Below are positions 5,632-20,832 of a stretch of DNA of 24,000 nucleotides, piece by piece. A program made the position numbers and the translations under genes. Source of the DNA: Candidatus Saccharimonadota bacterium (lineage in GTDB: Bacteria; Patescibacteriota; Saccharimonadia; Saccharimonadales; 2-12-FULL-41-12); contig JAYUAP010000146.1 of the NCBI GenBank assembly GCA_043741255.1, forward strand, positions 1 to 24,000, in the 5' to 3' direction. The notes beneath the pieces were generated by a model that was not told the origin of the DNA, did no database searches, and was given only the letters and a program-made list of their open reading frames with translations. Each line of letters begins with the position of its first letter. Position 1 is the stretch's first letter.

Positions 5632-5639
5632 CAAAGATA
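5632..5639 (-). promoter_or_regulatory. -7 box TATCTTTG located 4 nt upstream of the portal ATG
   Basis: The minus strand reads TGA tgcgaataatttta TATCTTTG acct ATG within the 26-nt terL-portal gap. Confidence 0.4.
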
Positions 5640-7166: not shown

Positions 7167-7174
7167 CAAATATA
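7167..7174 (-). promoter_or_regulatory. -7 box TATATTTG located 4 nt upstream of the terL ATG
   Basis: The minus strand reads ...GCUUUUUUCG TATATTTG CCTT ATG, immediately after the terminator hairpin at 7181-7203. Confidence 0.45.
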
Positions 7175-8370: not shown

Positions 8371-8399
8371 CAAAGATAATTAATTTTTATGTAAACAAA
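8371..8399 (-). promoter_or_regulatory. candidate promoter of terS (-7 TATCTTTG, -33 TTTG, 17-nt spacer)
   Basis: The minus strand reads cTTTGtttacataaaaattaatTATCTTTG, followed by 23 nt and then the ATG at 8347. The -33 box overlaps the first GTAAACAA iteron. Confidence 0.45.
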
Positions 8400-8740
8400 G
8401 ATAAACAATGATCGTTTACTCGTTAAGCCTTATATCCGTTGAGGTCAGATAGAAGTAAACAAAGTAAACAAAAAAGTCTCAGGATATATATAATACGTGT
8501 GTACGCATATTATATATACGTGTATGTACGCATTATCTTATATATTATTTTATTACTATATTTAATTAGTATTATTGTTTACATTGTTTACATCCTTGTT
8601 CCCGCCAATGGCTGCACGGGGTTCAAGCGTAAACAACCATTGTTTATTATTGTTTACCATTGTTTACTTTTCGGTTTTAAGCACAAAAAAGCGCCTTTTT
8701 CGAGGCGCTTCGCGTAAACAATGATTTTAGTATTGTTTAC
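8391..8740. repeat. noncoding boundary element R1: GTAAACA/TGTTTAC iteron array around an AT-rich core; homolog of 22968-23277
   Basis: Exact 7-mers start at 8391, 8455, 8464, 8629 and 8714 (GTAAACA) and lie within the TTGTTTAC copies starting at 8575, 8584, 8650, 8660 and 8733 (TGTTTAC). Degenerate copies start at 8401, 8413 and 8640. The core 8481-8574 is about 80% A+T. Four blocks are shared with R2 in the same order and spacing. Confidence 0.85.
8684..8710 (-). terminator. intrinsic terminator after the 138-aa ORF (end of the early/replication module)
   Basis: Stem AAGCGCC 8689-8695 pairs with GGCGCTT 8704-8710 around an 8-nt loop, with a U run on the minus strand (A run 8685-8690). Confidence 0.7.
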
Positions 8741-17773: not shown

Positions 17774-19741
17774 TTAATCTTTTTTATAATAGGGTGTTGT
17801 AAATCCTGCGGCGGTAAGGTGCAAACCCTTAGCCCACCTAACGGGCTCGCTTAATATTCGGCATAGCTCCGATACGACAAACTCGGTCGATTTATTCTCA
17901 ATGTCACATGCGACTTCGTCGTGTACGTGCATTACAATATCAAAGCCCTTATCATCTGCTCGTCGCATACCGTCCGCTAGTATATCTCTCGCAATGGCTT
18001 GAATTACATTTTCCGAAATTTTTCCGCCGTAGGTATCCGTCCAGCCCCATTGTTTAGTCTCTTGATTCATACCTTGGTACTTTATACTTTCGCCGCCCCA
18101 TTTGTTTTTTGATAGTACTGGGCTTTGGTACACAAGTTTACGCCCCGAAGGCAATTCGATAGTTAGGCATTTATATTCGTACCTAAATGTAATTCCTTTC
18201 AGTTTTGAAACTACGGGCTTTCGAGTCTTAAGGGCTCTTAGTGCGCAATCCTCAAATTCGTACCACATTTTAACTATCTGAGGGGAGGCTTTACGCCATC
18301 TATCTACGATGTCTTTCATCATGTCCTCCGTCCATCCCATACGCTCCCCGCCCATGGTCTTAAGTGCTCCGACTGAACCGCCAAACCCTAGAGCCAATTC
18401 TGCTATTTTCCCCTTGTCTCGCTGCTCGCCTACTACTGAGTCAATTGGTACCTTGTACATCATAGCCGCAGAGGCTTCATAAATTTTCCCGTCTCCTGCG
18501 AAAATGTCTAGTCTCCATTGTTCGCCAGATAGCCATGCTGTTATTCTTGCCTCTATAGCTGAATAATCGGCAATTGCAAAGACATTCCCCTCTGAGGCGA
18601 CTAGCGCGGTACGGATCAACTGCGAAAGGACGTTCGGAATATTATCAAACATGATATTAAGCATTTCGTAGTCATTCGCCTTGACTAGATCACGGGCACA
18701 ATCCAGTAGTTTCATTTTGTTACGGGGCAAGTTTTGCAGCTGTACGGCTCTACCAGCCCAACGACCTGTGCGGTTTGCGCCGTAGAAATATAATAGCCCG
18801 TGAGCCGTAGCGTCTGACATGGCGTAATTAACCATTGCGTTATACTTCTTTGTTGAGGTGCTAGATCCGAGCTGTCTAAGTTTTAAAACCTCTACCGCAG
18901 CCCCGCTTTTATGCTCTTGTATTAAAGCACTAACGTTATCCTTTGCAAGTGATTTTACTTCTTGTTGCAGTGCGGAACTCAGCCACTTTGAGAGCTGGGC
19001 GGGACTATTCGGGTTTACGAGTCCTGTTAAGTCTTTAAGCTTGTCGATAACTCCAAGTTTGAAGCGATTATCTATCTCGATAGCGTTTTGAGCCATTTCT
19101 ACGTCGATATTGACCCCTCTATCGTTTATCTTTTGGTCTAAGATGTAATTAAGTCTTTCAGTCTCAGGGATTTCAAAATATTTCAATCGTTCGAGTAATT
19201 CCATTTCGGCGGCAACATCCTGCGCGCAATAATCCTTATATCTTTCCCACTTCTCGGGATCATGTCTCCGGAGGTTTCTAAATCTCTCTCCGTTCGTTTT
19301 AGTTGGCTTTACGAGGCAAGAGAAATAACGAATTAAGGATTTACCCTCTGCGCTTTTACCCTTATCCCCCATCTGTAGTGCTTTTGTTGCACCGTCTAAC
19401 GACATCGGAAGTCCACAATATCCTGCTTTTACGGCTGAACAGTGCCACTGCTCTGCGGGTATGTCGTAGCCAATAGCCTTAAAGGCGTTGCGCTCAAAGT
19501 TTGCATTATGGGCGTGCTTTTCGACTGTTGGATCTTGCAGTAATTTTAAAAACAATTTAGGTATTTCGCCGCCTTGGGCTAGATCGATAGTTCTTACCCC
19601 CCCTGTTGTTGTGTCGTTTTTAATACAGTAGCACAAAATCAGTATTTCAAAATCTGGACTCTCAAAGTATTTATAAGACCCGCAACTCGTTATGTCAACA
19701 CTCGAAAAAGTCTCGACGTCAATGTGTAATTCTACCGCCAT
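17774..19741 (-). CDS. family A DNA polymerase with N-terminal 3'-5' exonuclease domain
   Basis: From the ATG at 19741 (MAVELHIDVETFS): Exo I DVE, Exo II HNANFE, Exo III YCAQDV, pol motif A DYSAIEARI, motif B RDKGKIAELALGFGG, motif C HVHDEV. The track start at 19834 would translate through a tRNA-like element. Confidence 0.9.
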   Translation of the reverse strand: MAVELHIDVETFSSVDITSCGSYKYFESPDFEILILCYCIKNDTTTGGVRTIDLAQGGEIPKLFLKLLQDPTVEKHAHNANFERNAFKAIGYDIPAEQWHCSAVKAGYCGLPMSLDGATKALQMGDKGKSAEGKSLIRYFSCLVKPTKTNGERFRNLRRHDPEKWERYKDYCAQDVAAEMELLERLKYFEIPETERLNYILDQKINDRGVNIDVEMAQNAIEIDNRFKLGVIDKLKDLTGLVNPNSPAQLSKWLSSALQQEVKSLAKDNVSALIQEHKSGAAVEVLKLRQLGSSTSTKKYNAMVNYAMSDATAHGLLYFYGANRTGRWAGRAVQLQNLPRNKMKLLDCARDLVKANDYEMLNIMFDNIPNVLSQLIRTALVASEGNVFAIADYSAIEARITAWLSGEQWRLDIFAGDGKIYEASAAMMYKVPIDSVVGEQRDKGKIAELALGFGGSVGALKTMGGERMGWTEDMMKDIVDRWRKASPQIVKMWYEFEDCALRALKTRKPVVSKLKGITFRYEYKCLTIELPSGRKLVYQSPVLSKNKWGGESIKYQGMNQETKQWGWTDTYGGKISENVIQAIARDILADGMRRADDKGFDIVMHVHDEVACDIENKSTEFVVSELCRILSEPVRWAKGLHLTAAGFTTPYYKKD

Positions 19742-19758
19742 AATTTCTATAGTTTTTT

Positions 19759-19817
19759 GTGGGCGTACGGGATTCGAACCCATTCCTGCTGCCGTGCTCC
19801 CATTACACCACCGCCCT
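19759..19817 (-). ncRNA. tRNA-like element 1 (acceptor, D and T arms present; anticodon arm absent)
   Basis: The minus strand reads A GGGCGG UG GUGU AAUGGGA GCAC GGCAGCAGGA AUGGG UUCGAAU CCCGU ACGCCCA C. It has a canonical T arm and a 4-bp D stem with a GG-containing loop. The acceptor has 5 G-C pairs. Only 10 nt stand where about 22 nt (anticodon arm plus variable loop) are expected. Confidence 0.5.
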
Positions 19818-19985
19818 TTGCCTGATCGACTCATAGGCGAGAGTGTTTAAGTTTAACTGTCTTAAACAACGACATTTCTATTGCCTTGATCCAATGCGCA
19901 TGTCGAGGCGTATATGCGGCTACTTTATTTAAACTCGTGAACTTCGAGCATCGCTGTACCTGTTCCGTATTACTGAGAAGGGTTG

Positions 19986-20011
19986 CAAAAATTAAGAGAA
20001 ATTAATCTCTT
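19986..20011 (-). terminator. weak terminator-like hairpin after tRNA-like element 2
   Basis: The minus strand reads AAGAGA UUAAUU UCUCUU AAUUUUUG. The stem pairs 19994-19999 with 20006-20011 and is A/U-rich (6 bp). Confidence 0.35.
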
Positions 20012-20013
20012 TG

Positions 20014-20095
20014 TGGAAAAATTAGGATTCAAACCTAAATTTCTGGTATATTTTATTCCGCAGTTCGAGCGCTTTATCCGTTAAACCATTTTCCC
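20014..20095 (-). ncRNA. tRNA-like element 2 (82 nt; 7-bp acceptor stem with G3:U70 and A73, D and T arms, no canonical anticodon arm)
   Basis: The minus strand reads GGGAAAA UG GUUU AACGGAUA AAGC G CUCGAACUGCGGAAUAAAAUAUACCAGAAAU UUAGG UUUGAAU CCUAA UUUUUCC A. I tried every register of the 31-nt insert and found no 5-bp stem with a 7-nt loop. Confidence 0.5.
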
Positions 20096-20207: not shown

Positions 20208-20753
20208 CTATAAATCGAATTCCTCTTCGTCGAGTTCATCGAAGACATCCTCAACTCTAACATTGGCAACGCCTAGAGGTTCGCCGTCGCTTACTTTTTG
20301 GATAGCCTCCAAGCTGGCTGTAATCCCCTTAGAGTCTTCTCTCCAGTAATAGTAGAATTCAATAGCTACATTTGCTATGCATCCGCTGTATACCTCGTCC
20401 TCGTCTGTAATTAAATTACGTCTCCTATCGACTATTTTAGGTTTTGTGGTTTTGGAGACATTTATGTAAAACCTATTCTCATAAATTTCATCGTCTTTGT
20501 CCTCGTCCCCGTCGTTAAATGAGTTTTTGATCTCTTTTTTAGGACGCTTACCTGCATATTTTTCGGTAATCATTTTTTCTTCTACCTCCTTAATTGCAGC
20601 CTTAATTTTAGCTACGGAAGCTTTGTCCGACTTATCGATTAGAAGTAAACATTTATACTTCGGTTTTTCGTCAGGTCGTTTCGGATCTGTGTAAGGTTTG
20701 AAAACACTTACATAACTTAATAGTGCTCTTACTGTAACTCTGGTCTCTGCCAT
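20208..20753 (-). CDS. single-stranded DNA-binding protein, DUF2815-type (T7 gp2.5-like) with acidic C-terminal tail
   Basis: 181 aa. N-terminus RVTVRALLSYVSVFKP and acidic tail DELDEEEFDL. It is encoded directly after the DUF2800-type nuclease, as in many phage replication modules. Confidence 0.6.
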   Translation of the reverse strand: MAETRVTVRALLSYVSVFKPYTDPKRPDEKPKYKCLLLIDKSDKASVAKIKAAIKEVEEKMITEKYAGKRPKKEIKNSFNDGDEDKDDEIYENRFYINVSKTTKPKIVDRRRNLITDEDEVYSGCIANVAIEFYYYWREDSKGITASLEAIQKVSDGEPLGVANVRVEDVFDELDEEEFDL

Positions 20754-20832
20754 AATAATTTTCTTTTTAAATTAGTGAATAGTTATCCTCGCCGATAAAA
20801 ATCAGCGGATTCAAATGTATTAAATTCTTTGA

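Follow-up and report, generated by a model that had tools for sequence, protein, structure and literature searches.

A tRNA-like element without an anticodon arm precedes the DNA polymerase gene of a siphovirus-type phage and may act as an RNA-processing signal

The stretch of DNA analysed here (the window: 24,000 nucleotides (nt), positions 1 to 24,000 of contig JAYUAP010000146.1, assembly GCA_043741255.1) holds a siphovirus-type phage genome, in which a 59-nt tRNA-like element lacking the anticodon arm (element 1, 19759..19817) lies just upstream of the DNA polymerase gene; all genes, and all features of the window located below, are on the minus strand. The gene order runs from a DUF2800 nuclease through an Enc34-type single-stranded DNA-binding protein (SSB), a 466-nt gap, a family A DNA polymerase, YpsA, a VapE primase and a methylase to an SNF2 helicase, terminase, portal, protease and capsid. 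The gap is bounded upstream by the SSB gene (20208..20753; Pfam PF10991, E 8e-49) and downstream by the DNA polymerase A gene (polA, 17774..19741; Pfam DNA_pol_A), whose true start is the ATG at 19741, an N-terminus kept in 38 homologues. By its PolA protein, the nearest cultured phage is Croceibacter phage P2559Y, with 52% amino-acid identity.

The Rfam tRNA model RF00005 and the minimum free energy (MFE) fold point to an acceptor stem, a D arm and a T arm in element 1, and a covariance model described below (R1) matches it too. Read on the minus strand from 19817 to 19759, it consists of A, the acceptor 5′ strand GGGCG (19812..19816), G, UG, the D arm GUGU-AAUGGGA-GCAC (19794..19808), a 10-nt linker GGCAGCAGGA (19784..19793), the T arm AUGGG-UUCGAAU-CCCGU (19767..19783), A, the acceptor 3′ strand CGCCC (19761-19765), A and C. 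The acceptor has five contiguous pairs, as against the 7-base-pair (bp) stem and discriminator of canonical tRNA, and on either side of them are mismatches, A19817.A19760 (1:72, A.A) and G19811.A19766 (7:66, G.A). The D arm, which sequence, Rfam and fold agree upon, has its stem strands at 19808-19805 and 19797-19794, GG in its loop and U8 and G9 before it, so that the U8 and the G18 G19 of canonical tRNA are both present, and the T arm, drawn from the same sources, has the canonical 5-bp stem and UUCRANY loop. Where the anticodon arm and variable loop would stand, sequence, Rfam and R1 place only the linker; the RF00005 alignment has 1 nt there against 13 model positions, and the 5-bp stem and 7-nt loop of an anticodon arm are absent. 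On this reading element 1 is tRNA-shaped but unable to decode. An earlier note, written from the letters of the window, had described the T arm, the D arm with its U8, the GGGCG/CGCCC acceptor, the linker and the 1:72 and 7:66 mismatches, and had concluded that the element cannot decode a codon, all of which agrees with what the sequence, RF00005 and the fold give. An acceptor GGGUG/CACCC-A is reminiscent of E. coli tRNA-Val, which may bear on the parent isotype of element 1.

RF00005 matches exactly 19759-19817 on the minus strand with 26.6 bits, under its gathering score of 29 (E 0.003 in a 701-nt search), and ARAGORN reports 0 tRNA genes in the window; the tRNA-finder and RF00005 check that the earlier note had proposed returned, in other words, no normal cloverleaf. 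In isolation the 59-mer adopts the three-arm fold as its MFE structure (-21 kcal/mol, frequency 0.70). A simple T-arm regular expression run across the window did no better than chance.

Automated annotation hides the element, as the earlier note had supposed from an open reading frame (ORF) track that reads through it at 19742-19834. An ORF scan gives polA as 17774-19834, encoding 686 amino acids (aa), and the public protein P0001 has the same 686 aa, but 38 PolA homologues begin at MAxELHIDVETFSS, that is, at the ATG at 19741. Because the homologues start there, we take the in-frame 5′ extension of 31 codons (19742..19834), which runs through element 1, to be a spurious product of annotation. 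Between C19759 and the polA ATG lie 17 nt, or the 18 nt given earlier if counted from 19759. This 17-nt leader (19742..19758) is A-rich and has no Shine-Dalgarno sequence, and its N73-CAAA trailer is common to relatives; short A-rich leaders are favoured by Bacteroidota translation. On the other side, a TGA closing a 56-codon open frame lies 13 nt before element 1.

PolA homologues taken from the protein database and traced to contigs L007, L008 and L213-L216 yielded close relatives, 76-78% identical in PolA, where a first IMG/VR scan with a single protein had given only relatives at 46-56% identity. Each of these contigs carries a homologous element in the SSB-polA gap, syntenic to the window, and the comparison with related phages that the earlier note had called for led to homologues in the same gap. 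Common to the clade are a 5′ AGGGYG, a canonical T arm and a 3′ ACRCCC followed by ACAAAA; the T loop is perfect and the stems are paired in all seven clade members, and the element starts 8-10 nt after the SSB stop in L007, L008, L213, L214 and L215 (the contig start of L216 is too close to judge). The anticodon region is absent from the window copy (59 nt), L215 (52 nt) and L216 (57 nt), forms a hairpin in L007 (UCUC-GAAA-GAGG, with a tetraloop) and L214 (CAG-UAUA-CUG), and forms a stem with an 8-nt loop in L213 (AGGC-8 nt-GCCU) and L008 (6-bp stem). Because the arm-less forms are not sisters on a crude neighbour-joining tree of PolA, the anticodon arm was probably lost more than once.

The retained half of the molecule varies in sequence and stays paired. 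Compensatory changes occur in the clade stems at 5:68 (U-A/C-G), 6:67 (G-C/U-A) and 49:65 (A-U/G-C), the acceptor strands of relatives covary (GGGUG/CACCC, GGGGCUU/AAGCCCC), and the 4-bp D stems of five clade members are all paired: GUGU/GCAC in the window, GUCU/AGAC, UGCC/GGCA, UAGC/GCUA and GAGU/ACUC, the last read by eye where the MFE fold drew another hairpin. The 1:72 mismatch is a family trait and not damage specific to the window, and the remainder of the SSB-polA gap cannot be aligned between the relatives and the window. Rfam reports nothing at threshold on the arm-less relatives and scores L214 as a tRNA, the window copy has the lowest Rfam score in its clade, and the MFE fold of L007 did not recover the T arm. 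Among 50,697 phage records blastn found nothing that matched the gap, and the exact D-arm/short-linker/T-arm pattern had 0 matches in IMG/VR. Directly after the element, four relatives carry a long hairpin (GCCCCCGC...GGGGGC, with an inner GUGAU-UUUU-AUCAC; L007 1070-1135, L213 930-995, L215 1209-1270, L216 88-150) that is not found in the window, and a leader CUUUCACUAAAAAGUAAAACAU before the polA ATG is kept in L008, L116, L213, L215 and L216 and is likewise missing from the window.

A wider set of 17 further loci from more distant phages of Bacteroidota type, with PolA 45-71% identical (L006 and 16 of 80 IMG/VR loci), extends this position beyond the clade. In all 17 the T arm ends 23-39 nt before the polA ATG and the element itself 14-29 nt before it, with Rfam scores of 28-54 bits, and the anticodon region is expanded (17-30 nt in place of 9-17; one element 137 nt) or deleted. 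One locus, L052, has an arm-less 57-nt element before polA that scores 49.1 bits and has an unrelated acceptor sequence; a nearly perfect nested hairpin of about 43 nt (790-833) lies there between the SSB stop and the element, and the 141 nt holding hairpin and tRNA-like (775-915) fold with z -5.1. ARAGORN misses most of the wider elements, and the anticodons that it assigns to orthologous copies do not agree with each other (ccat, ttg at position 37, att at position 36). The same gap holds tRNAs in some relatives, a normal tRNA-Leu(UAA) in L002 and a tRNA-Gln in L058, and unannotated tRNA-likes in two cultured phages: one of 52 bits, whose anticodon loop carries an insert of about 16 nt, in Croceibacter phage P2559Y (KC688701 26696-26782; L211 1857-1943), and an eroded one with T loop UUUGAAU and a terminator-like hairpin before it in Bacteroides phage BF486P2 (OP172667 10020-10086; L212 2395-2461). 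No element was found in 80 loci, mostly Bacillota prophages, from alignment-based IMG/VR and GTDB scans, whose distant PolA makes them background only.

When 22 pol-linked elements are compared, pairing in the 12-bp acceptor-T helix amounts to 96.2% and 11 of its 12 pairs show double changes, a result that 0 of 500 shuffles attain; slid-register controls gave 37-55% pairing. These pairs were counted on equal-length spliced strings of acceptor and T arm, MAFFT having misplaced the 5′ strands of elements of unequal length. With all the loci taken together, the distance from the stop of an upstream ORF of at least 80 codons to the start of the element is 4-14 nt in 19 cases. The family of element 1 has, in short, a common structure that is conserved, covaries and sits at regular positions.

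A smaller form of the same architecture emerged from a scan with the pattern GGTTCRANYCC-N4-CRCCCACAAA, which returned 4 IMG/VR and 38 metagenome sites. Many of them are 42-45-nt units composed of GGGUG, a connector, a 6-bp T stem, the T loop, CACCC and A-CAAA, with a connector of 11-12 nt bearing a conserved GG (CUGGCAGACAU). R1 is a covariance model built from ten of these mini elements with the window left out, and it defines a class of 40-45 nt without a D stem: a 5-bp acceptor helix, an 11-14-nt GG-bearing bulge, a 6-bp T stem, the T loop, N73 (mostly A) and C. For the mini elements Rfam 15 has no family at threshold, only mascRNA-menRNA (RF01684) at 20 bits, E about 4. The best R1 match in the whole 24-kb window, both strands searched, is element 1 (29.3 bits, over 19755-19805, E about 1e-8 on a scale that is rough by design), and the next-best match in the window has E 0.11. 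The alignment uses the common GGCAG connector, the T arm and the 3′ strand, and the linker GGCAGCAGGA is similar to the GGCAGACA connector of the mini elements. Element 1 is thereby probably related to the mini elements; it has a true D stem and they have none, and the link may be a likeness of parts instead of strict homology.

Mini elements occur in arrays. The 2.7-kb contig L029 holds three near-identical copies at 645-695, 1308-1358 and 1622-1672; after each copy, just before the next ATG, stands ACCCUG...GUGGGUG, complementary to both acceptor strands, and this alternative pairing suggests a way in which the fold of the element could be linked to translation of the next gene. In L012 (IMGVR_UViG_3300020599_000001), a Cluster R mycobacteriophage matching Mycobacterium phage Send513 (NC_042033.1), there are 13 complete copies on one strand over 11.5 kb; every copy, of ~40 nt, comes 6-16 nt behind a stop codon and has after it a small hairpin, a Shine-Dalgarno sequence and then the next ATG. 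The acceptor sequences of these 13 copies all differ and are 97.9% paired, with double changes at 9 of 11 pairs and a covariation of 0.91 against 0.20 in shuffles. Run on Send513 with filters off, R1 gave 15 matches (NC_042033 38593-61335), all on the gene strand and in the right arm and none annotated in GenBank, 12 of which start within 15 nt after an annotated coding sequence end.

Upstream of element 1, the SSB-polA gap of the window contains a second tRNA-like, element 2 (82 nt, 20014..20095), which scores 40.5 bits with RF00005 and escapes ARAGORN. Its anticodon stem has 3 bp, an AU-rich stretch of 20 nt is inserted, the T loop reads UUUGAAU, and the acceptor contains a G3:U70 wobble. 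Its homologues lie at L007 1138-1220 and L116 1690-1773, and G3:U70, an alanine identity element that works in transfer-messenger RNA (tmRNA) too, is kept in both of them and in the P2559Y element. Directly after element 2 follows a small hairpin, AAGAGA/UCUCUU and then AAUUUUUG (19986..20011; -6.2 kcal/mol, z -3.2), which is possibly a weak terminator or attenuator; a terminator scan did not flag it.

The Bacteroidota -7 promoter motif TAnnTTTG is enriched in the window (38 matches where 24.4 are expected, a count that 0 of 100 shuffles attain), with matches upstream of several genes, e.g. at 20812-20819, 8371-8403, 7167-7174 and 5632-5639, and because of this enrichment the phage host is probably a member of the Bacteroidota. 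The gap between SSB and PolA in a siphophage clade probably infecting Bacteroidota is, by these comparisons, the place that the element family occupies. A sigma-70 promoter scan, ill-suited to Bacteroidota, found none. The motif scan places a match, TACATTTG (20812..20819), upstream of the SSB gene; within the SSB-polA gap the sole match falls inside the T arm of element 2 (20030-20037), and there is none between element 2 and polA. Because a motif precedes SSB and none lies between element 2 and polA, polA is probably read from the SSB transcript through both tRNA-likes. The matches inside the T arms of element 2 and of the BF486P2 element were considered as promoters and rejected, as they have no -33 motif and are taken as coincidence.

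Two observations stand apart from the element. Several PolA homologues (P0019, P0025, P0030 (L116 1801-4074), P0032, P0036 and P0042) are 733-776 aa long against about 656, and their best segment covers 57-61% of the query, except in P0032 (100%), which suggests an insertion inside polA of intein or homing-endonuclease type. A free-standing GIY-YIG/NUMOD3 homing-endonuclease-like ORF lies at 731-1519, adjoining the major capsid gene.

Taking the family as a whole, we give about an even chance to the reading that element 1 is a real tRNA-derived structure under selection, non-decoding, which would act as a co-transcribed module for host RNase P and RNase Z. The half that is kept is the part read by RNase P, RNase Z, the CCA-adding enzyme and elbow-binding factors, and the half that is dispensable is the decoding part. 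A shape that is retained while its sequence is free to change, even within one genome, points to a shape-reading processing enzyme instead of a sequence-specific partner, and a strand-locked placement after stop codons and in arrays fits a cis-acting punctuation of polycistronic RNA. As precedents, the substrates of RNase P include the phage C4 and M3 RNAs, operon mRNAs and tRNA-like structures (PMC11143913), and in M. smegmatis the tRNA-like domain of YrlA, which does not decode, undergoes RNase P cleavage and receives a CCA tail in vivo (PMC4201824). The earlier note had offered mRNA punctuation as one possible explanation; the placement 4-16 nt after stops and the arrays in other phages speak for it indirectly, and the processing itself is what we infer from them.

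In this processing model, element 1 would be transcribed within the SSB-PolA polycistronic RNA, a co-transcription that we infer because of the gene order, the shared strand and the lack of a promoter motif of its own between element 2 and polA. Having lost the anticodon arm and kept the acceptor-T coaxial helix together with a D arm that would supply the GG of the tRNA elbow, the transcribed element would offer a shape for host RNase P at its 5′ end and for RNase Z, or exonucleases and the CCA-adding enzyme, at its 3′ end. Its putative excision would part the SSB from the PolA message, two proteins whose amounts are expected to differ (much SSB, little polymerase), leave in front of polA a leader that is short, unstructured and A-rich and begins with CAAAA, free a stable RNA of about 58 nt, and in this way affect expression.

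Several findings count against this processing model. As a stand-alone 59-mer, element 1 is not significantly more stable than shuffles (z -1.4), and in 159 nt of context its MFE fold pairs GGGCG with an upstream CGCCU instead, an alternative of frequency 0.0005 that is not significant. That alternative partner lies at about 19835-19839, within 19818-19870. The window copy has only five contiguous acceptor pairs between two mismatches, and among the major determinants for RNase P is an acceptor stem of 7 bp (PMC4201824). R1 places the mini 5′ strand on the D loop of element 1 and not on its acceptor strand. The 5′ acceptor strands were found by complementarity, leaving only the T-stem part of the pairing count free of bias, and the metagenome matches were picked with CRCCCACAAA, so that their pairing and trailer conservation hold partly by construction. 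The small hairpin and U-run between elements 2 and 1 might terminate the SSB transcript, and element 1 would then depend on a promoter of its own. Finally, the 24-kb window contains only two tRNA-likes, which makes punctuation no general strategy of this phage.

We also entertain, with rather less than even confidence, a broader claim: that 40-60-nt tRNA-elbow mimics, composed of an acceptor-T helix and a connector bearing GG, some with a D stem and none with an anticodon arm, are a widespread unannotated class of intergenic elements in phages. They would bring in host RNase P and RNase Z to cut polycistronic mRNAs after stops in the manner of mitochondrial tRNA punctuation. Its scope would take in phages of Bacteroidota (the window, P2559Y, BF486P2) and of Actinobacteria (Cluster R, with at least 13 copies per genome) and probably of Firmicutes (L029).

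It is possible, if unlikely, that the function resides in the excised small RNA, which would act in trans as a tRNA mimic and bind or titrate a factor reading the acceptor, T arm and elbow. Candidates for such a factor are EF-Tu, the CCA-adding enzyme, a modification enzyme, a synthetase indifferent to the anticodon, or a host defence toxin that attacks acceptor stems or the 3′ ends of tRNA. The earlier note had likewise listed a decoy for tRNA-binding host factors, an idea that the results neither favour nor discount. The parts that are kept are exactly the anticodon-independent recognition surface, the G3:U70 wobble is kept in element 2 and its homologues, N73 is conserved as A followed by C, and arrays would raise the dosage of such an RNA. 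However, a decoy for a sequence-specific factor should keep its sequence, and the 13 copies of L012 have wholly different acceptors; a trans-acting RNA would not need tight placement after stop codons, and no tRNA-related enzyme or toxin gene is present among the ORFs of the 24-kb window, where neither an integrase nor an rsr-like gene is found either.

Somewhat less probable is a cis-acting structure without excision, whether a 5′ cap-like fold guarding the polA mRNA, a 3′ stabiliser of the SSB message where the element abuts the SSB stop, or a translational operator bound by a phage protein, as in the autoregulation of T4 gp43 and gp32. Fixed positions would suit it (a distance of 14-39 nt to the polA ATG in 18 loci, and of 8-10 nt from the SSB stop in the window clade), as would the resistance of tRNA folds to exonucleases (argued in PMC4201824) and the hairpin that often follows the element. 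However, a stabiliser would not call for anything nearly as specific as the canonical T loop, the GG of the D loop and the acceptor-like helix, RNase P would cut such a shape if nothing stopped it, and no candidate binding protein was identified.

More doubtful again is a neutral remnant of a phage tRNA gene that has had its anticodon arm deleted and is on its way out, a decayed tRNA being another of the explanations offered in the earlier note. The SSB-polA gap is indeed a tRNA locus in relatives (L002 and L058), the window copy with its two acceptor mismatches is the lowest-scoring of its clade, and the BF486P2 version is clearly eroded. Decay should spare the T loop and acceptor no more than it spares the anticodon arm, however, and 7 of 7 clade members keep the T loop and compensated stems, while the rest of the gap has become unalignable; the arm has been swapped for tidy tetraloop hairpins or cleanly removed in non-sister lineages, and the 1:72 mismatch is shared by the family. 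The compensatory changes in the acceptor-T helix and D stem, together with the recurrence of the arm-less form in non-sister lineages, speak against that earlier explanation. A feature acting at the level of DNA (an attP-type tRNA fragment, a recombination hotspot or a replication-origin structure) is very improbable: the site does lie inside the replication module, and the repeated copies in L029 and Send513 could mediate recombination, but the elements are always oriented with the genes, they show G-U pairs and covariation of RNA type, and the attP fragment was rejected, as both acceptor strands and the D and T arms are there and not just a 3′ fragment, and the window has no integrase.

Under the processing model, the mechanism belongs to a class known from t-elements, mascRNA, the tRNA-like domain of tmRNA and YrlA. 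Among the closest systems are the t-elements of plant mitochondria and mitochondrial tRNA punctuation, in which tRNA-shaped, non-decoding elements lie in polycistronic RNAs and cuts by RNase P and RNase Z set the mRNA ends, reminiscent of the arrays between genes in the Send513-type phage; those systems are organellar and their processing is demonstrated, whereas here a phage would use bacterial enzymes, and the window has two elements at one junction. The mascRNA and MEN-beta RNAs (MALAT1 3′-end processing; RF01684) are about 60 nt long with acceptor and T arms and a vestigial anticodon region, and are excised by RNase P and RNase Z, one cut yielding the 3′ end of the upstream RNA and the small RNA; they are vertebrate and nuclear, have no sequence homology to the phage elements, and the 20 bits of the mini elements are far under the gathering score of 42.5. 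The tRNA-like domain of tmRNA likewise has no anticodon arm, joins an acceptor stem and T arm to a reduced D region, and shares G3:U70 with element 2; in element 1 the pair 3:70 is G-C, there is no tag ORF or pseudoknot, the 59 nt have no insert, and no full match to RF00023 is obtained.

The YrlA module, which also occurs in mycobacteriophages, mimics the acceptor, D and T arms of tRNA and does not decode (PMC4201824), but it carries a Ro-binding helix and adjoins rsr. YrlA or another bacterial Y RNA was considered as an identity for element 1 and rejected: neither the helix nor rsr is present here, and Rfam gives no Y RNA match. Phage transcripts other than tRNAs are also matured by RNase P, through a tRNA-like acceptor/T-type fold, namely the C4 antisense RNA precursor of P1 and P7, the M3 RNA of phi80 and stable RNAs of T4 (PMC11143913); these are single regulatory RNAs of coliphages, without the combination of T loop and D arm, the SSB-polA position or the arrays. 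The 3′ tRNA-like structures of plant viruses are viral tRNA mimics recognised by host tRNA enzymes, but they stand at the termini of RNA viruses, are pseudoknotted and aminoacylatable, and keep an anticodon-like domain. A full-text literature search gave no description of arm-less SSB-polA tRNA-likes or of Cluster R arrays, an earlier mention of repeats in Cluster R being possible, and a 2023 catalogue says of phages no more than that they hold unclassified "tRNA or tRNA-like" structures (PMC10690425). What appears to be new is the phage setting, together with the arrays and the reduction series that runs from 83 to 40 nt.

If the processing model holds, phages would reuse the top half of a tRNA as a compact and portable handle for the tRNA-processing enzymes of the host, by which they may control the cutting of operon transcripts or produce small RNAs shaped like tRNA. 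Phage expression would thereby gain a post-transcriptional layer that goes unseen by annotation pipelines, since tRNA finders reject such elements and ORF callers read through them, as the 31 spurious residues of the public PolA illustrate. Related elements are present in three cultured systems, Croceibacter phage P2559Y, Bacteroides phage BF486P2 and mycobacteriophage Send513/Papyrus in M. smegmatis, and the natural series of tRNA reduction, from about 83 to about 40 nt, would mark the parts that the recognising factor needs.

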